A stretch of 64,000 bases of DNA. Source: an uncultured bacterium. GTDB taxonomy: Bacteria; Desulfobacterota_D; UBA1144; Nemesobacterales; UBA2774. The notes beneath the pieces were generated by a model that saw only the letters and a list, made by a program, of their open reading frames with translations, was not told where the DNA came from and did not search any database. Position numbers and translations under genes: made by a program. The stretch is taken from the NCBI GenBank assembly GCA_963705505.1, contig CAVPJU010000006.1:544001-608000 (forward strand), in the 5' to 3' direction. This document shows, piece by piece, positions 2,812 to 44,106 of the stretch; the first letter of the stretch is position 1, and every line of letters starts with the position of its first letter.

Positions 2812-2856
2812 ATTAAAAGCATGTAATTATTAAGATAGTGTTAAAGGCGGCTTAAA
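2812..2856 (-). promoter_or_regulatory. Putative Pho-box-like array plus -10 upstream of egtB
   Basis: Minus strand TTTAAGC-N4-TTTAACA-N4-CTTAATA-N10-TTTAAT, nearly the same architecture as the pstS promoter. Confidence 0.4.
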
Positions 2857-2941
2857 AATAAATGGACAATAAAATCAGTTAAGCGGGGAGCGGGTCAGGA
2901 TACTTGCATAGCCGATTAACGACGGGCGGACGAAGAGTTAA

Positions 2942-3565: not shown

Positions 3566-4818
3566 TCTTTCTCCCTCCAGATACTGGCTCCTAAAGATTC
3601 GAGTTTGCTGTCTAGTTTTTCGTAGCCCCTGTCCAGGTGATACACCCTTGATATCTCGGTTTTTCCGACCGCGGCGAGTCCCGCCAGAACGAGAGAGGCG
3701 CTCGCTCTCAGATCGCTCGCCATCGTGGGCGCGCCGCTCAGGTGCCTGACGCCCCTCACGACAGCGCTGTTCCCGACGAGCTTTATGTCCGCGCCCATCC
3801 TCCTCAGCTCGCCCGCGTGGAGGAACCGCTGCGGGAATATGGTTTCGGTGAGCACGCTGAGCCCGTCCGCGGTGCTCATGAGCGTCATCATCTGCGCCTG
3901 CATGTCAGTCGGGAAGCCGGGGTAGGGCAGGGTGGTGATATCGGTACTTTTTAATTCTCCGTCAGACTTCACCCTTATACCGCCGTCCTCACGGGTAATT
4001 TGTGTGCCTATTTCGATAAGCTTCCCGATGAGGGCGCCCATGTTCTCAAAGCGGCAGTTCTTAATCAGCAGGTCCCCTTTGGTCAGCACTGAGGCTATCA
4101 TGTATGTTCCAGCCTCAATCCTGTCGGGCATTACTTCGTAGTCTTTGAGGGGTGAAAGCGTTCTTACGCCTCTTATCGTGATTATGTCCGTCCCAATGCC
4201 TTTTATATCGGCGCCCATTTTGTTGAGCGAAGTAGCGAGGTCGGTAACCTCGGGCTCGCATGCCGCGTTAAGCAGTATTGTTTCTCCCTCCGCGAGCACC
4301 GAAGAGAGGATGAGGTTTTCGGTCCCCGTCACTGTCGACACGTCAAACGGTATGATGCCGCCCGTGAGCTTGGGCGCATTCGTTTCGACATAGCCTTCCT
4401 CGATCTGGATTTTTGATCCCAGGATGCTGAGACCTTTTAGGTGCTGGTCTATGGGCCTCTCGCCTATCGCGCAGCCGCCGGGAAGCGATACGCGGGCTTT
4501 GCCGAACCGGGCAGTGAGGGGCCCGAGCACGAGGACCGAAGCGCGCATCGTTTTAACGAGGTCGTAAGGTGCCTCCCAGCTATTTAAGTTCGTCGTGTCT
4601 ATGGAAAGAGTTCCCTTGTCGTATTCGACATCGGCTCCCAGTATCTGGAGAAGCTTTGCCATAGTCCTCACGTCGGCGAGGTCGGGGACATTGGTAAGGA
4701 TATGCTCACCCTCAGCCAGAATGCACGCGGCCATCAAGGGTAAAACTGCGTTTTTGGCCCCGCTGACTATGACTTCGCCTGCAAGCCTCTTTCCGCCTTC
4801 GACTATTATTTTTTCCAT
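3562..4818 (-). CDS. murA: UDP-N-acetylglucosamine 1-carboxyvinyltransferase
   Basis: SGAKNAVLP, LPGGCAIGERPIDQH, PGFPTDMQAQ, YHLDRGYE. Confidence 0.97.
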   Translation of the reverse strand: MEKIIVEGGKRLAGEVIVSGAKNAVLPLMAACILAEGEHILTNVPDLADVRTMAKLLQILGADVEYDKGTLSIDTTNLNSWEAPYDLVKTMRASVLVLGPLTARFGKARVSLPGGCAIGERPIDQHLKGLSILGSKIQIEEGYVETNAPKLTGGIIPFDVSTVTGTENLILSSVLAEGETILLNAACEPEVTDLATSLNKMGADIKGIGTDIITIRGVRTLSPLKDYEVMPDRIEAGTYMIASVLTKGDLLIKNCRFENMGALIGKLIEIGTQITREDGGIRVKSDGELKSTDITTLPYPGFPTDMQAQMMTLMSTADGLSVLTETIFPQRFLHAGELRRMGADIKLVGNSAVVRGVRHLSGAPTMASDLRASASLVLAGLAAVGKTEISRVYHLDRGYEKLDSKLESLGASIWREKE

Positions 4819-5670
4819 CTGGCTCTCACAACCCTCTCTATATCGTTAATGTCTCTTGAGGAGGAAATCTCCGTGAATCCGGCCTCTCGGAAAAGCGTTT
4901 CTACCGCGGATAACTGTCCCGCGCCTATTTCCAGCAGGCACCATCCGCCGTTTTTCAGAATATATGCCGCACCCGGGATTATCTGCCTGATAAAATATAG
5001 ACCGTCCTCTCCTGCAATCAGGGACGAGCGCGGCTCAAAGTCCTTTATTTCGGGAGGCAGGGCTTTAAACTCCCGCTCGGAGATATAGGGCGGATTAGAT
5101 GCGACTATGTCGAATGCGTCTTTTTTAAACGGGTCCGTCAGGTTGCCGCGGACAAATAATATTTTATCGCGGGAACCGTGCCTCCGGGCGTTTTTTGCGG
5201 CTAATGCGAGGGCTTCGGGCGAAATGTCGGCACCGTATATTTTTGCATCTTTCAATTCACATGCCAGGGTTACCGCGACGCACCCGCTCCCCGTGCCTAT
5301 ATCCAGTATCGCGGGTCTCTCCATGCCGTCCGCCGCTCTCAGCGTCTCTTCGACGAGGAGCTCCGTTTCCGGCTCTCGGAATCAATACGCTTCTCTCAAT
5401 CGAAAATGTCCTCGAGTAAAATTCCTTTTCGCCCGTTATATAGGCCATGGGCTCGTTTTTGATTCTTCTTTCCATAAGCCGGTTGAATACGTCGACTTTT
5501 ACCTGATCAAGCTCCTTTTCGGGATGGGCATAGATTTCCGAAATATCCTTGATGGCGCTCGACTTTGAAAGCAGGATAGACGTTTCGAGGGCGGGATTCT
5601 CTATGAGATGCCGCTTCATGTTTTCCTTGCCGTATTGATAGAGGTCCTTCAAGTGCATGTTTTTACTCAT
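4806..5670 (-). CDS. prmC: Release factor glutamine methyltransferase, split by a 1-nt frameshift near 5375
   Basis: N-terminal half ends at EPMAYITGEKEFY...VLIPR; the other frame continues PETELLVE...ILDIGTGSG...SNPPYI. Probably a sequence error. Confidence 0.9.
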
Positions 5671-11996: not shown

Positions 11997-12992
11997 TCAG
12001 TTTCCGATCACTTTCCACTGCTCTGCGTCGATGTTTGCAGGTAACGGGTCATAACCGTCTTTAATTACGACCTGCTGACCCTCCTGGCTGAGCACATACT
12101 TTAAGAACTCGAGACGAAGCGGGTCAAGAGCTTCGTTCGGTTTCTTGTTGACATAGATATAAAGATACCTGCCTAGAGGATATGTTTTGTTAAGAACATT
12201 CGCGAGATTCGGTTCTGCGCATTCGCCCGGCTTTTTGCCAAGCTTGAGCGCCTTAACGCCGGAGGTTACATACCCGATTCCGCTGTATCCGATGGCGCCT
12301 TTATCTTCGGTGACGCCCTGAACGACGGATGCAGAGCCGGGCTGCTCCTTGACGGAGTCCTTGTAATCTCCCTTACAGAGCGTATGCTCCTTGAAATATC
12401 CGTATGTGCCTGAGGCCGAATTTCTGCCGTACATGCTTATCGGCATGTTGGCCCAATCGCCCGTCAGTCCGAGCTGCCCCCAGGTAGTAATGTCCTGAGC
12501 CCCGCCGCAAGCCCTGTTCTTCGAGAAAATTGCGTCTAACTGATCCATGGTCACACAATCGAGCGGATTATCTTTGCTAACGAATACCGCGAGTGTGTCT
12601 ATCGAGGTTGAAACCGCAGTCGGCTTGTAACCGAATTTCTTTTCGAAATCGTCAACTTCTTTATCCTTCATCGTACGGGACATGGGACCGAACTGAGCCG
12701 TCCCCTCGATGAGAGCCGGAGGGGCGGTGCTTGAGCCTTTACCCTCGATCTGGCATTTTACGTTCGGGTAATTCTTTGTGAACCCCTCGCACCAGAGGGT
12801 CATGAGGTTATTCATAGTGTCCGAGCCGATGCTGTTGATGTTCCCGGTGACACCGCTTGTTTTGGTGTACATGGGGATAGCCGTATCGACCGTTACGGTC
12901 TCCGCGGCAATACCTATAATTCCCGCCAGTGCCAAGACAAATGCAGCAAGGCCGGCAATTATGCTACCCTTGATAAGTTTTCCTCTAAGCAT
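11997..12992 (-). CDS. pstS: Phosphate ABC transporter substrate-binding protein
   Basis: Signal peptide, [31 protein letters not shown]. Confidence 0.95.
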
Positions 12993-13029: not shown

Positions 13030-13084
13030 ATTAAAACCGAGTAATGTTAAGGATGTGTTAAGAGAACATTAAACCCTAGTTAAC
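13030..13084 (-). promoter_or_regulatory. Pho-box array and -10 element of pstS
   Basis: Minus strand GTTAACT-N4-TTTAATG-N4-CTTAACA-N4-CTTAACA-N9-TTTAAT: four 11-bp-period direct repeats directly upstream of pstS, resembling PhoP/SphR-type boxes. Confidence 0.8.
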
Positions 13085-13266: not shown

Positions 13267-13306
13267 GTTAACGGGGGATTAATACGCAATTAATCTTATC
13301 TTCATT
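13267..13306 (+). promoter_or_regulatory. Second Pho-box-like array, upstream of the divergent hypothetical gene
   Basis: GTTAACG-N4-ATTAATA-N4-ATTAATC-N4-CTTCATT, 11-bp period. Confidence 0.55.
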
Positions 13307-13408: not shown

Positions 13409-13990
13409 ATGGAAATACGATCCGTACATCAGATAGCCAAAAGAGAGTGGGAAAACATCTCGGTATCCCTGGAGCTATGCGGGGACATAGGGAAATTCGA
13501 TCTCGCGCGTTACATCGAAAGAGAGCCCGAATTAATCCGCAATCTTATCGGAATGGAGAAGAAGATTCATCAACATGACTATCTCACAAGGGAAGCCGCC
13601 TATGTGTTTACCGAATTGGGGAAGGAAGCGGGAGGGAGACTCGGGCTGAAAGCGGAGCTGGCTAAAGCTTTCGGGGGCGGCTACAGCTGGGTGAGGACGG
13701 GATGGTTCGATCTTATAAACCTTGAGTTCGATGACCTTGATATTCTGGAGGGACACCTGACCCGTAAGATCTTCTTTTTCAGGCTTTTTTTCCCGCTGAA
13801 AGAGGATTTCAGCTGGCTTTTCGATTCCCCGGCCGTTACTTCGAATTTTAAATCCATATTCGAAAGGTTTTTATCCTGGCAAAGGGACCCCGTTGGCTAT
13901 GACAGGGATTTAGAGTCTTACAAGACCGAGATCGATCCGATCAGGGAGGGACTCGCGTCCGCTCTCGATATACAATCCGGACGCTGCTAG
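13409..13990 (+). CDS. Hypothetical protein (193 aa)
   Basis: Long ORF with ATG start, upstream GGAG and host-like codon use; no family recognised. Confidence 0.7.
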   Translation: MEIRSVHQIAKREWENISVSLELCGDIGKFDLARYIEREPELIRNLIGMEKKIHQHDYLTREAAYVFTELGKEAGGRLGLKAELAKAFGGGYSWVRTGWFDLINLEFDDLDILEGHLTRKIFFFRLFFPLKEDFSWLFDSPAVTSNFKSIFERFLSWQRDPVGYDRDLESYKTEIDPIREGLASALDIQSGRC

Positions 13991-27477: not shown

Positions 27478-27506
27478 TAGTTCGGAGTTTGGAGAAAGGA
27501 TGTTCT

Positions 27507-27594
27507 GATCGAAAGGGCAAACTATTCGAAAGAATAGGGCGCAAAGCCGACGGCCTAAGGGCGAAGTCAGCCTATGGCGGCGGGTTGCCGAAGA
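27507..27594 (+). ncRNA. Cyclic di-GMP-I (GEMM) riboswitch
   Basis: AGGGCAAACTATTC-GAAA-GAATAGGGCGCAAAGCCGACGGCCTAAG...ATGGCGGCGGGTTGCCG follows the class I pattern (GNRA tetraloop stem, GCAAAGCC, CCTAAG/ATGG receptor). Confidence 0.9.
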
Positions 27595-27733
27595 GATGGA
27601 GGATGGGTCGCTATTAAATTCCGCTCTTCTATTTAGATATTGAGGCAGTCCCTCTATGCCCTTTTTGAGAATGTGCTGTCCGGAGTCTCGCATGAGAAGA
27701 GCCGACTGCCGAATACTCAATATCAGCAAACGC

Positions 27734-28840
27734 ATGATTTGGGTTTTTTTAACCCTGCCCGTATTTATTTTTTCGTTATCGGAAAATACCTCCGCAAATT
27801 CATATTATTATAAAAAAGAAGTTAACGGGGTCGTGTATTACACAAATATCGACCCAAAAAGCAGCGGATACAAGAAGATCGGAAGTCCCTGGGGGACGTT
27901 CCGCGGCACTCCCAAGAGCCAGAGGGGGTACCTCGATAAATACAATTACTCCGATGAATTCGATCAGCATATAAACAGCACCGCAAAGTGGTACGGCGTC
28001 GACCCGCTTCTCATAAAAGCGATGATAAAGGTAGAGTCAAATTTCAACCCCGATGCGGTTTCTCCCCAGGGGGCCATGGGCATAATGCAGCTGATGCCGG
28101 GAACGGCAGAGCGGATCGGGGTATCGGATCCGTTCGACCCCGTCGAGAATATCGAAGGCGGAGTCAAGTATTTCAATATGCTTATGGGTATGTTCAACAA
28201 TAACATGACGCTTGCGATAGCCGGGTATAACGCCGGGGAGAATGCCGTTATAAAGTACGGTTATAAAATTCCTCCGTACGATGAAACCATAGAATACGTG
28301 AACAGGGTTTATGCCCATTACGATTATCTGAAAAAAACTCCAGCCGAAAGAAATATCGCCTCTATGATCGCTAAGGAAACGGACAGAACCAATTCATCCG
28401 CCGGCAATAAAAAATCGTTTATATATGTCGAGACTCTCGCCGATAAAGGGGTGAGCAGTCAGGTAAACGCCAAACCGGCTCTCCCGAAACAACCTGCATT
28501 GACGGTCAAAGCGGAAAAAGTCGAAAGGAAAGCCGATAAAACCGCGGCAAGCGGAGATTCCGATACGGTAGCGGGTTCTCTGATTACGAATGACACCGAA
28601 GGGCAGTACGCGGTACAGCTGGCCTCGTTCCCCGACCTTCAGTTAGCAAAGGAGATGGAGGAGTCACTCAAGTCCAAGACCTATCAGGCTTACATAGAGA
28701 AAGTGGATTTGCCGGGCAAGGGGACCTGGTACAGGGTGAAAGTCGGCAAGTTTACTACTGAAGACGAGGCCAAGAGGTTCGGCGACGATATGATAAGCGT
28801 CGAGCCCGATGTTAAGTCCGTTCTGGTCACATTGAACTGA
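27734..28840 (+). CDS. Lytic transglycosylase (SLT) with C-terminal SPOR domain
   Basis: AMIKVESNFNPDAVSPQGAMGIMQLMP, AGYNAGE, ETIEYV; C-terminal YAVQLASF...WYRVKVGKF; start chosen at the signal-peptide Met. Confidence 0.9.
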   Translation: MIWVFLTLPVFIFSLSENTSANSYYYKKEVNGVVYYTNIDPKSSGYKKIGSPWGTFRGTPKSQRGYLDKYNYSDEFDQHINSTAKWYGVDPLLIKAMIKVESNFNPDAVSPQGAMGIMQLMPGTAERIGVSDPFDPVENIEGGVKYFNMLMGMFNNNMTLAIAGYNAGENAVIKYGYKIPPYDETIEYVNRVYAHYDYLKKTPAERNIASMIAKETDRTNSSAGNKKSFIYVETLADKGVSSQVNAKPALPKQPALTVKAEKVERKADKTAASGDSDTVAGSLITNDTEGQYAVQLASFPDLQLAKEMEESLKSKTYQAYIEKVDLPGKGTWYRVKVGKFTTEDEAKRFGDDMISVEPDVKSVLVTLN

Positions 28841-40159: not shown

Positions 40160-41701
40160 GTGGAATACCTTATTTTAGCTTCTAAGATTATTGTAACAGT
40201 CCTTTATGCCGTAACGCTGACGCTTCTTTGCATATTCGGTCTGCACCGGTATTACCTTTCCTATTTATACGGTAAGAATAAAGAAAAAGTACCGGTCCCC
40301 AAATTCAGGTTCGAAACCCTTCCCCACGTAACGATACAACTCCCCATATATAACGAAATGTACGTCGTGGAGAGGCTCATCTCCTCAGTATGCAGGATAG
40401 ACTATCCGAGAGAGCTGCTCGAGATCCAGGTCCTCGATGATTCCACGGACAGGACCGTGGAAATTGCGAGCAGGTGCGTCAATCAATTTAAACAATCCGG
40501 CTACGATATAACATATATACACAGGGAAAACAGGGAGGGTTATAAGGCAGGAGCCCTGAGGGAGGGGCTTAAATCGGCAAAGGGCGAGCTTCTGGCAATA
40601 TTCGACGCTGACTTTATACCCCCCCGGGACTTTCTCAGGAATACCGTGGATTTCTTCTCCGATCCCGAGGTCGGCATGGTGCAGGTCAGGTGGGGGCATG
40701 TAAATCTCGATTACTCCTCCCTTACCAAAGCTCAGGCGATACTCCTTGACGGGCATTTTATGATAGAGCAGACGTCCAGGTTTAACGGCGGGATGTTTTT
40801 TAACTTCAACGGGACTGCCGGAGTATTGAGGAAGGAATGCATAGAAAGCTCGGGCGGATGGCAGCATGATACCCTTACCGAGGATCTCGACCTCAGTTAC
40901 AGGGCACAGCTTGCGGGATGGAAGCTGGTTTACCTGAGGGAAACGACTGCCGATGCGGAGCTGCCGGTGGATATGAACGCGTTTAAATCACAGCAGCACC
41001 GGTGGGCAAAGGGAGGGGTTCAAACTGCATTAAAAATACTTCCCGAGGTGTTCAGGAGGAAAAATCTTCCTTTTAAAATTAAGTCCGAGGCATTTTTCCA
41101 TCTCTTCGGCAATATATCTTATCTGCTCTTGTTGTTTCTCTTCCTGCTTATGTTCCCGATGGGATTTTTCTGGAGCAAGATAGGGTGGGACAGCGGCATA
41201 GTCATAAACATAATCGCTATAACTGCCGGAACTCTCAGCTTCGTGCTTTTTTATGTAATCACGGTGAGGGAGGTGCACGGCAAGAACTGGCTCACCTATC
41301 TGAAGTATGTACCGCTTGCCATATCTATAGGAGCCGGAATGGCGGTCAACAACTCGAAAGCGGTGCTCGAAGCCTTACTCGGCAAGACTTCGGAGTTCAG
41401 GCGTACCCCGAAATTTGCAGTTACTTCCAGGAATGACAACTGGCGTTCGAGGAGCTACGTCGCATCGAAAGAAATGACCGCTGTCATAGAGCTCGTTCTC
41501 GGCGTATTGTTTTTTCTCCAGACCGTTTTTGCTATATATATGGGACATCTGGGGTGGGTCCCGTTCCTTCTGCTCATACAGTTCGGATTTTTATATACGG
41601 GACTTCTTTCAATCTTTCACGGCTCCGGTAAAAAGGGCCCGGACTCATCAATTACCCCGATAATTCCCGAGCCCGCGCTTCAGAGAGATAAGGAGTATTG
41701 A
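40160..41701 (+). CDS. Processive family 2 glycosyltransferase (cellulose-synthase-like)
   Basis: QLPIYNE, DDSTD, KAGAL, DADF, TEDLD, QQHRW (QxxRW) plus TM helices. Confidence 0.88.
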   Translation: MEYLILASKIIVTVLYAVTLTLLCIFGLHRYYLSYLYGKNKEKVPVPKFRFETLPHVTIQLPIYNEMYVVERLISSVCRIDYPRELLEIQVLDDSTDRTVEIASRCVNQFKQSGYDITYIHRENREGYKAGALREGLKSAKGELLAIFDADFIPPRDFLRNTVDFFSDPEVGMVQVRWGHVNLDYSSLTKAQAILLDGHFMIEQTSRFNGGMFFNFNGTAGVLRKECIESSGGWQHDTLTEDLDLSYRAQLAGWKLVYLRETTADAELPVDMNAFKSQQHRWAKGGVQTALKILPEVFRRKNLPFKIKSEAFFHLFGNISYLLLLFLFLLMFPMGFFWSKIGWDSGIVINIIAITAGTLSFVLFYVITVREVHGKNWLTYLKYVPLAISIGAGMAVNNSKAVLEALLGKTSEFRRTPKFAVTSRNDNWRSRSYVASKEMTAVIELVLGVLFFLQTVFAIYMGHLGWVPFLLLIQFGFLYTGLLSIFHGSGKKGPDSSITPIIPEPALQRDKEY

Positions 41702-41789
41702 TTGTACCGCCTCCTCCGGCGGCTGTAAGAATAGTGCCGGTTGGATTTGAGCGGAGCTATGCGAATCAATGGAGACTTTCCCGGATTAT

Positions 41790-41850
41790 AAAAAGGGGGG
41801 GGTGAGCCCGATGAAGTCTCACCCCCCAGGAGCACGGAGTTTTAGGGTAT
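41790..41850 (-). ncRNA. Candidate small RNA (~60 nt) ending in an intrinsic terminator
   Basis: Minus strand ATACCCTAAAACTCCGTGCTCCT-GGGGGGTGAG-N11-CTCACCCCCC-CC-TTTTT; no minus-strand gene upstream to account for the terminator; own -10 and Pho-like array. Confidence 0.6.
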
Positions 41851-41857
41851 GGAAATG

Positions 41858-41912
41858 ATTATTACTAAAAAAGATTAATTTTCTATTAAGGTTCGGTTGA
41901 GCATTGGTTAAC
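41858..41912 (-). promoter_or_regulatory. Pho-box-like array and -10 driving the candidate sRNA
   Basis: GTTAACC-N4-CTCAACC-N4-CTTAATA-N4-ATTAATC-N9-AATAAT, same spacing as the pstS promoter. Confidence 0.6.
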
Positions 41913-42058: not shown

Positions 42059-42817
42059 ATGAGAATCTGTACACTTGCGAGCGGCAGTTCCGGGAATTCT
42101 CTATATATAGAATCCGAGGACACGAGGATCCTCGTCGACGCGGGAATAAGTCTCCGGCAGATCGGTCTCAAGCTGAGGAGGCTCGATGTGGATGTATCCG
42201 ATATCGACGCCGTTGTAGTTACCCACGAGCATTCCGACCACACTGCGGCCATACCGAATATAGGCGTCCCGGTGCATGTCGCCAGAGCCACGTCCCATCT
42301 CTGGCATAATAAAGTGAGCTCTCTCAGGGAATTCGATAGCGATGCTTCTTTTATGATAAAGGATATGTTGATAACACCCTTCTCCGTGCCTCACGACGCC
42401 CTTGACCCCGTCGGCTTCTCGATCGAATCCGGCAAAGATGAGAAGATAGGGGTGGTCACGGACATAGGCACCGTCACTGCATTAGTCAGAGAGAGGCTCA
42501 GGGGGTCGAACGCTCTCGTATTGGAATTCAACCACGATAACGACATACTCCTTTACAGCCACTATCCGTGGGATCTAAAGCAGAGGATCAGGGGACGCCT
42601 GGGCCACCTTTCGAATAACCAGGCTTCGGAGCTCCTCTCGGAATTGGTTCATTGCGGGTTAAAACACCTTGTGCTCGCCCATTTGAGCCAGGTGAATAAC
42701 AAACCCGAAGTAGCTTATGAATCTGCGTCGAGCGTGTTAAAGAAATCGGTTGATGGGACGGAGGTGCAAATCTCAGTCGCTCCCAGAAAAACCATGGGGG
42801 AGGTGCTTACGATTTGA
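42059..42817 (+). CDS. MBL-fold metallo-hydrolase, YycJ/WalJ-like
   Basis: LASGSSGN, THEHSDH, PHDA, GHLSN, LAHLS. Confidence 0.9.
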   Translation: MRICTLASGSSGNSLYIESEDTRILVDAGISLRQIGLKLRRLDVDVSDIDAVVVTHEHSDHTAAIPNIGVPVHVARATSHLWHNKVSSLREFDSDASFMIKDMLITPFSVPHDALDPVGFSIESGKDEKIGVVTDIGTVTALVRERLRGSNALVLEFNHDNDILLYSHYPWDLKQRIRGRLGHLSNNQASELLSELVHCGLKHLVLAHLSQVNNKPEVAYESASSVLKKSVDGTEVQISVAPRKTMGEVLTI

Positions 42818-44106
42818 TTCCCAGATATTCAAGGCCTGAAATGTCCGCGGTCTGGACGGATGAGGCAAAGTACAGAAACTGGCTTCGAGTTGAAATTGCC
42901 GTTTGCGAGGCATGGGCTAAGTACAAGCGGATACCCAAAAAAGCGGTGGATGCCATTAAGAAGAAAGCCGGGTTCGATGTCGCCAGGATCAACGAGCTCG
43001 AAAAAGAGCTTAAGCACGATGTAATCTCCTTTCTGACCTCGGTCTCGGAGCACGTAGGTAAGGAATCAAGGTATATCCATCTCGGCCTCACATCATCCGA
43101 CGTTCTCGATACCGCGTTCGCGCTTCAGCTGAGGGAAGCGGCCGAAATAATAATTCAAGATATCAAGGTCGTAATTAAGATTCTAAAAAAACAAGCGTTT
43201 AAATATAAGAAGACGCCCATGATCGGCAGGACCCACGGCATTCACGCAGAGCCTAAAACACTGGGACTCGTATTCGCGCTCTGGTATGACGAAATGAAAA
43301 GGAACCTGGAGCGGATTATACGGGCAAGGGATGTTGTCAGCGTCGGCAAGATTTCAGGGGCTGTCGGGACGTTCGCGAACGTTACTCCCGAGATAGAGGA
43401 AGACGCTTGCAGACGCTTGGGTCTCAGGCCTGCTCCGATATCCACCCAGATCGTCCAGCGCGACATACATGCCGAATACTTCCTCACTCTGTCGATAATA
43501 GCATCGACTATCGAAAAAATAGCCTTGGAAATAAGGCACTTTCAGAGGACGGAAGTGCTCGAGCTCGAAGAGCCGTTTACGGAGGGCCAGAAGGGCTCAT
43601 CTGCAATGCCTCACAAGAGGAACCCTGTGCTTTCTGAAAACCTGTGCGGGCTTGCCCGTGTCGTTCGCTCTTATTCCATTACCTCGCTTGAGAATATACC
43701 CCTCTGGCACGAACGCGATATCAGTCATTCGTCCGTCGAGAGGGTGATTGGTCCCGACAGTACGATCCTCCTCGATTTCATGCTCGACAGGCTCGCCTAT
43801 CTTCTTGAGGGTCTTCAGGTCTATCCCGAGAATATGGAAAAAAACATATGGCTCACACGAGGACTCATATTCTCGCAAAAGGTTTTGCTGAAACTGGTCG
43901 AAAAAGGCGTGTCCAGAGAGGACGCCTATAAGCTAGTCCAACGGAATGCCATGAAAACGTGGAAGGAGAATGCCGATTTCCTCGACCTCCTTATTAAAGA
44001 CGCGGATGTCGCGGGTTTATTAACTAAGGAAGAAATAAAAGAATGTTTTGATGTGACCGCCGATCTCAAGAATATCGACCGCATATTCGACAGGGTGTTT
44101 TCATGA
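42814..44106 (+). CDS. purB: Adenylosuccinate lyase
   Basis: MIPRYSRPEM, GRTHGIHAEP, GSSAMPHKRNP, ERDISHSSVER. Confidence 0.97.
   Translation: MIPRYSRPEMSAVWTDEAKYRNWLRVEIAVCEAWAKYKRIPKKAVDAIKKKAGFDVARINELEKELKHDVISFLTSVSEHVGKESRYIHLGLTSSDVLDTAFALQLREAAEIIIQDIKVVIKILKKQAFKYKKTPMIGRTHGIHAEPKTLGLVFALWYDEMKRNLERIIRARDVVSVGKISGAVGTFANVTPEIEEDACRRLGLRPAPISTQIVQRDIHAEYFLTLSIIASTIEKIALEIRHFQRTEVLELEEPFTEGQKGSSAMPHKRNPVLSENLCGLARVVRSYSITSLENIPLWHERDISHSSVERVIGPDSTILLDFMLDRLAYLLEGLQVYPENMEKNIWLTRGLIFSQKVLLKLVEKGVSREDAYKLVQRNAMKTWKENADFLDLLIKDADVAGLLTKEEIKECFDVTADLKNIDRIFDRVFS

Follow-up and report, generated by a model that had tools for sequence, protein, structure and literature searches.

Small RNAs in phosphate control

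In Escherichia coli and Bacillus subtilis, the promoters controlled by PhoB or PhoP contain direct repeats with a period of about 11 bp, which replace the -35 element and stand at a fixed distance from the -10 element. Four repeats with an 11-bp period are a hallmark of such PhoP/PhoB promoters. EsrL is reportedly a phosphate-induced small RNA (sRNA) of E. coli that is tied to phosphate signalling.

According to the PhoS report, knowledge of phosphate control is dominated by protein regulators (PMC11522486). The same report describes PhoS, an sRNA of Bacillus velezensis and B. subtilis, which is induced by phosphate scarcity and whose promoter region contains four Pho-box motifs that PhoP~P, a regulator of the OmpR family, binds (PMC11522486). 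An OmpR-family regulator also governs the csRNAs, i.e., the CiaR-dependent sRNAs of Streptococcus, which carry an unpaired anti-Shine-Dalgarno and anti-start-codon sequence, with CAU in 53 of 61 (PMC3091779).

By comparison, the sRNA reported here from Candidatus Dadabacteria resembles PhoS in having four repeats ahead of a small RNA (PMC11522486). PhoS lies in the 3' UTR of phoPR, whereas the Dadabacteria sRNA is a stand-alone intergenic unit 96 kb from phoBR and belongs to another phylum, the comparison being one of descriptions and not of sequences (PMC11522486). With the csRNAs it shares a CAU-N9/10-CUCC arrangement in an unpaired 5' end, a likeness of design only; the ortholog of genome G013 lacks the CAU (PMC3091779). 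The anti-initiation stretch of the csRNAs lies between two stem-loops, and there are several copies per genome; in contrast, that of the Dadabacteria sRNA stands at the 5' end of a single-copy RNA with a single stem-loop, and both the regulator and the signal are others (PMC3091779). No homology to the csRNAs was detected.

A literature search on small RNAs of Dadabacteria and on PhoB or Pho-box sRNAs returned no description of this sRNA and no paper on RNA regulators in Dadabacteria; its results included PhoS of Bacillus and studies of PhoB in Synechocystis and Pseudomonas. Pho-regulated sRNAs and anti-initiation sRNAs driven by response regulators are already known, and to these the sRNA adds a new family from an uncultured group. 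An earlier note on this DNA had proposed an undescribed Pho-regulated sRNA that represses translation through an anti-Shine-Dalgarno sequence. The first part of that proposal is strongly supported by a Pho box of its own, a conserved unpaired 5' end, a covarying terminator, synteny in four genera and the lack of an Rfam family at threshold; for the second part, target searches yielded no conserved target. Overall, the locus is likely to be an independent gene, under a PhoB-type promoter, whose non-coding RNA product of ~60 nt acts in trans at initiation regions. From sequence comparison, its identity as an independent sRNA gene under Pho control is very probable, and base pairing at initiation regions has about an even chance of being its mode of action.

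The sRNA unit and its surroundings

The sRNA unit lies in the window, i.e., the whole 64,000-nucleotide stretch analysed here, in a 357-bp spacer between a GT2 glycosyltransferase gene (40160-41701, plus strand) and an operon of an MBL-fold hydrolase and purB (42059-44106, plus strand). Here the earlier note had described, on the minus strand, four Pho-like repeats of 11-bp period, an AATAAT -10 element with pstS-like spacing, a pyrimidine-rich leader and a 10-bp GC stem with a U-tract, all of which are present. The repeats TTAAC (41911-41907), TCAAC (41900-41896), TTAAT (41889-41885) and TTAAT (41878-41874) form a Pho box at 41874-41911 (minus strand) with an exact 11-bp period. They are direct repeats that stand where a -35 element would be, score 19/20, which places them in the top five genome-wide. 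The -10 hexamer AATAAT (41863-41858, minus strand) begins 15 nt past the start of the last repeat, leaving a spacer of 10 nt, or 9 if the repeat is taken as a hexamer. The promoter lacks a -35 box and instead carries the four-repeat site that is found in this lineage ahead of pstS and other phosphate-starvation genes.

We infer that transcription starts at about 41852 (+/- 2), some 6-8 nt past the -10 element, at or just before CAUACCC. The leader on the minus strand, catttCCATACCCTAAAACTCCGTGCTCCT, contains both CTCC and CTCCT. The conserved unpaired 5' region, or seed, CAUACCCUAAAACUCCGUGCUCC (41829-41851, minus strand), was defined by an alignment of ten copies and their consensus fold, and the core kept most widely within it is CUCCGUGCUC (41839-41830). 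A terminator hairpin, supported by the predicted fold and by covariation, occupies 41795-41827 (minus strand) and comprises a 10-bp G+C stem with an inner 3-bp extension, in which GGGGGGTGAG (41827-41818) pairs with CTCACCCCCC (41806-41797) on the minus strand. The run TTTTT at 41794-41790 (minus strand) gives the U-tail and the end of the transcript, so that an RNA of ~60-63 nt is predicted, from ~41852 to 41790 on the minus strand. A distance of ~90 nt separates its 3' end from the stop codon of the GT2 gene, which is on the opposite strand.

Taken alone, the hairpin is ordinary for its composition (MFE -22.9 kcal/mol, z = -1.29), and a simple terminator scan did not list it; the same scan listed TAGAAA-16-AATAAT of this region as promoter-like. 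The case therefore rests on comparison and not on the single sequence. The statement that no open reading frame exists on this strand was not literally true: a mechanical GTG frame of 51 aa (41680-41835, minus strand) traverses the hairpin. The orthologs are unrelated in sequence there, and no conserved reading frame was found in the sRNA, its sole frame crossing the non-conserved stem.

Two other features of the window were recorded. A c-di-GMP-I riboswitch (27506-27592, plus strand; 74.7 bits, gathering threshold 35) lies upstream of a lytic-transglycosylase-like gene at 27656-28840. The PrmC release-factor methyltransferase is split into overlapping frames at 4806-5324 and 5257-5670 (both minus strand), covering profile positions 90-252 and 3-71, respectively; either a frameshift or a sequencing error accounts for the split.

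The Pho box of the lineage

The reference for the Pho box is the promoter of pstS (gene at 11997-12992, minus strand), in the operon pstS-pstC-pstA-pstB-arsC-phoU. This promoter (13030-13083, minus strand) reads TTAAC/TTAAT/TTAAC/TTAAC at 13083-13046, then 10 nt, then TTTAAT at 13035-13030, and scores 20/20. The -10 spacing at the sRNA equals that of pstS and of the sRNA orthologs, in which the hexamer is TATTAT.

When up to 2 mismatches were allowed, a pattern of three repeats matched 11 times in the window against 0.97 expected, and 0 of 100 shuffles reached 11; the matches cluster at pstS, its divergent neighbour, the sRNA site and one more place. In the 2.88-Mb genome, a four-repeat score of at least 17/20 was reached by 23 strand matches at 16 loci, compared with 0, 2 and 0 in three Markov shuffles. 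The best sites genome-wide stand upstream of pstS (20/20), a PhoX-like alkaline phosphatase, a phosphate-selective porin O/P beside phoB, the sRNA (19/20), a gene of unknown function divergent from pstS, a metallophosphoesterase, a GT2 glycosyltransferase and an OlsB-type N-acyltransferase, the last of which represents phosphorus-free lipid synthesis.

The same four repeats, at 18-20/20, precede pstS in 29 of the 29 family genomes with upstream sequence, a count that leaves out G016, whose copy is at a contig end. At the sRNA promoters, a Pho box scoring at least 17 is present in 20 of 21 distinct loci and in 0 of 3000 random windows, and the ortholog boxes always lie 18-20 nt (once 30) ahead of the first position of the covariance model. 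Because the same layout recurs at pstS, at other phosphate genes and at the pstS genes of relatives, the four repeats at the sRNA are, judged by their pattern, the organism's own Pho box. A promoter with the four-repeat site of the lineage should make the sRNA respond to a PhoB-type regulator when phosphate is scarce. A phoB-like gene (C6:447703-448374; 241.5 bits, under the NCBIfam equivalog cut-off of 296.2) and a phoR-like gene (C6:449123-450151; 320.4 bits, under the equivalog cut-off of 334.2) are adjacent, and are the best matches of the search. Only two full-length OmpR-type regulators were found in a profile search of the genome. At low phosphate, the PhoB-type response regulator, encoded 96 kb away, would activate the sRNA gene.

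Further Pho-box sites have been noted. A second four-repeat box in the window (13268-13305, plus strand; 19/20), divergent from pstS, lies ahead of 13409-13990 (plus strand), whose 193-aa product has no Pfam or NCBIfam match and is a candidate member of the Pho regulon. A Pho-like site at 2829-2866 (minus strand; 17/20) is upstream of the ergothioneine genes egtB-egtD (1358-2704 and 348-1310), where phosphate control of ergothioneine synthesis is possible, as is chance. Outside the window, at C6:630939-636988, four Pho-box sites cluster before a GT2 glycosyltransferase, an OlsB-type acyltransferase and unknown genes, probably reflecting phosphorus-free membrane-lipid synthesis under Pho control.

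Conservation of the RNA in Candidatus Dadabacteria

A 41-nt BLAST match in another genus revealed an ortholog with four repeats, TATTAT, CCATACCCTATCAACTCCGTGCTC, an unrelated hairpin and a T-run. A pattern search then found the sRNA unit in 10 of 33 family genomes and missed the window copy, which is one base shorter. In the alignment of ten copies, positions 9-28 are nearly all invariant and predicted unpaired, and the consensus fold leaves the first 34 nt unpaired and almost invariant. Across orthologs, the 5' 22-25 nt hardly vary, an invariance that is partly by construction, since three of the searches demanded the seed pattern; the unbiased outlier, the G013 ortholog, retains only CUCCGUGCUCU, without the CAU part.

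The stem behaves differently: compensating changes occur at 6 of its 12 pairs among the ten sequences. With 22 distinct sequences, 10 of the 12 pairs have changed on both sides, and none of 500 shuffles reaches the covariation score; 89.9% of cells are paired, compared with 78.3% in shuffles and 39-61% with the partner slid, this alignment having been fitted to the covariance model. The T-runs that follow the stem in the orthologs comprise 5-8 T, and 12 further metagenome loci carry varied terminators.

The covariance model built from the ten copies matched at full length, with 34-92 bits, in 12 of the 33 genomes of the family, all relatives compared being MAGs. These genomes are the window's own, nine of the ten of genus g2, G014 (g6) and G013 (g5), i.e., four genera of Candidatus Dadabacteria, so that the RNA is conserved in relatives. 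The same model found a single copy in the window's genome and none in the other nine genomes of its genus, so that the sRNA is dispensable; in these same-genus relatives the spacer is shorter, without repeats or seed, and the MBL promoter is retained. The other 68 genomes of the order gave only weak matches, of at most 27 bits, and the 20 inspected in other families (22-27 bits) were either common terminators or parts of coding sequences.

The locus (window 41794-41842) is also present, at ~90-99% identity and with length changes in the G and C runs of the stem, on contigs from four public metagenomes (wetland, groundwater, mine drainage). In one run, a near-identical strain differs in the seed core, by C>U at 41837, and also by A>U at 41842. 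No Rfam family matched at its gathering threshold. The weak matches to sbrA and Atu_C9 reflect terminator likeness below gathering. The best of them, sbrA (RF01489), a Listeria sRNA of ~70 nt, likewise has a 5' single strand and a terminator; the window scores 26.7 bits and the G010 ortholog 19.9 bits, both below the gathering threshold of 45, and this is a likeness of shape and not membership.

All 12 matches in the family adjoin the MBL gene, with the sRNA divergent from MBL-purB; counted by locus, the adjacency holds in 13 of 17 loci searched, some of which repeat one genome. This constant divergence might mean that the Pho box controls the MBL-purB operon or is a spare PhoB site, and that the RNA is an incidental, functionless transcript. 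The nine same-genus genomes that keep the MBL promoter without the sRNA, and target searches that gave none, agree with that view. However, the Pho box lies ~80 bp from the MBL -35 element and is oriented to the sRNA -10 with pstS-like spacing. Moreover, across genera no part of the spacer is better conserved than the transcribed 5' 22-25 nt, and the terminator keeps its pairing only; if the sequence of the RNA were of no consequence, such a combination would be difficult to account for. An incidental transcript is considered unlikely.

In every locus that extends far enough, a GT2 gene is found on the other side of the sRNA. Two placements would suit action in cis, either as a 5' leader or attenuator or as an antisense RNA to the convergent GT2 3' end: in the window, ~90 nt lie between the end of the RNA and the GT2 stop codon, and in G010 a co-directional TetR gene starts ~260 nt downstream of the sRNA. 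Against such cis action, the window has no co-directional gene downstream, the GT2 gene is 1.5 kb away in G014 and 7.5-9 kb away in G024 and G010, the terminator is strong (5-8 U), and no alternative pairing between seed and stem is predicted. We regard cis action in either form as highly improbable. The hairpin is also unlikely to be a mere plus-strand terminator of the glycosyltransferase gene, a reading that the earlier note had set against its own: the plus strand has no T-run after the stem, and the 1.5-9 kb that separate the sRNA from the GT2 gene in other genera disfavour it as well. A trans-acting sRNA under Pho control is the preferred reading.

The seed and the search for targets

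The predicted sRNA has an unpaired 5' stretch that hardly varies and leads straight into an intrinsic terminator; it would pair in trans through that stretch. The seed reads CAU-N9-CUCC in the window and CAU-N10-CUCC in genus g2 and G014, complementary to GGAG-N9-AUG and GGAG-N10-AUG. Among 1239 predicted initiation regions with GGAG, the distance from GGAG to the start is 9 nt in 164 and 10 nt in 100; as these spacings are common in the genome, the CAU...CUCC spacing fits real start sites. The seed looks like a generic anti-initiation-region sequence. Its likeliest action would be to occlude translation initiation regions, giving less target protein under phosphate starvation. Anti-Shine-Dalgarno repression is a reasonable model, and the one observation that helps it is the CAU-N9/10-CUCC geometry. 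Neither Hfq (PF17209) nor ProQ (PF04352) gave a match in the 93.6%-complete genome, and since neither chaperone was found, the sRNA probably works without them.

Target predictions in one or two genomes produced no convincing target. Duplex energies between the seed and 2548 initiation regions fell below -20 kcal/mol in 174 cases, with 58-210 for eight shuffled seeds, and the top-ranked regions were mis-called internal starts or unremarkable genes. In 1438 ortholog pairs with G014 (a single relative, 77% of that genome, compared without an accessibility model), the best joint match was -22.5/-21.8 kcal/mol. Contiguous pairing of at least 8 nt in both genomes occurred in 5 pairs, against ~2.6 expected, and used different parts of the seed. 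The candidates rpsE and a dehydrogenase were rejected, because the parts of the seed involved differ and because one of the sites is a promoter spacer that lies ahead of the likely start.

The mRNAs of the Pho regulon and the transcripts of neighbouring genes paired no better than background, and the 5' UTR of the MBL gene gave -7 to -12.6 kcal/mol. Elsewhere in the genome no long complement of the seed was found, the best reaching 24/29 with G-U pairs, inside an aminotransferase gene. Scoring of initiation regions anchored at the start codon gave 13.5/23 at best. Several apparent sites were set aside: the 23 exact GAGCACGGAG sites lie mostly in coding sequence for histidine kinases or PBPs (EHGG codons), pairing at the ThiC start site involves only the window-specific AAAACUCC, and the only conserved core match of a whole-mRNA comparison lies ahead of the next gene in PBP2-type coding sequence, where protein constraint accounts for it.

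A long invariant stretch, yet no conserved mRNA target detected, might point to an RNA that binds a protein or the ribosome as a decoy or mimic, and ten nucleotides of the seed, AACUCCGUGC (41841-41832, minus strand), are identical to the 5' strand of helix 18 of 16S rRNA (C3:331597, minus strand). The AACUCCGUGC 10-mer, however, occurs 6 times in the genome against ~5.5 expected, an identity compatible with chance and probably due to it; the seed has no GGA motifs of the CsrA type, and no partner protein is linked in the neighbourhood. Such a decoy is very unlikely.

The absence of a single conserved target would also fit an sRNA that is a general brake on protein synthesis in phosphate starvation and not a regulator of a few genes. 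Its 5' end would then act as a generic complement of start sites (anti-AUG plus anti-GGAG), with ten nucleotides copying helix 18, and in bulk the RNA would cover many initiation regions or disturb 30S assembly. If true, the sRNA would cut the largest phosphorus sink of the cell, the ribosomes; we give this idea very little probability.

Apparent mobile-element junctions in genus g2

In genus g2, the sRNA gene appears from its sequence contexts to be an integration site of a mobile element. Matches that resembled sibling sRNAs or paralogs in this genus are instead junctions of inserted DNA, and the junctions explain both these paralog-like matches and the identical terminators within one genome. 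The syntenic copy of G045 keeps the Pho promoter and the first ~22 nt, and continues into foreign DNA with DUF3102 and HTH_36 genes. The 3' half of the sRNA and its terminator are found at a distance of ~26 kb. They stand behind a conserved arm, which repeats that of the other junction imperfectly and in inverted orientation. Just inside that distant end are a large serine recombinase of 617 aa and a spare copy of the sRNA that is complete, diverged and driven by a Pho box. The junction-related pieces on contig C48 of G045 are L059 4430-4458 (minus), L058 273-332 (minus), L058 437-591 (plus) and L058 658-2511 (minus); further pieces are L055 8419-8482, L056 4393-4454 and L037 301-359.

The same arm and sRNA 3' half border islands beside an intact sRNA in G010 (TetR/OYE/ADH) and G024 (RND efflux pump). 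In G019, the arm and the 3' half only are present, and no intact sRNA was detected. G010 has a third sRNA 3' part (L055 11901-11967), which runs from CAACTCCGTGCTC through a near-identical terminator with no Pho box ahead, and ends a second island with CARDB-cytochrome c and PAN-domain genes. A further junction is one possibility for this piece, a duplicated attachment site another.

Implications for Candidatus Dadabacteria

Candidatus Dadabacteria has no cultured member. For this lineage, the analysis contributes a defined Pho box and a predicted Pho regulon that includes pstSCAB-phoU, PhoX, a porin, a phosphoesterase and genes for phosphorus-free lipids. As protein regulators dominate the knowledge of phosphate control, each independent Pho-box sRNA supports a common RNA arm of the Pho response. 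The sRNA contributes a first candidate riboregulator wired into the Pho regulon of Dadabacteria.
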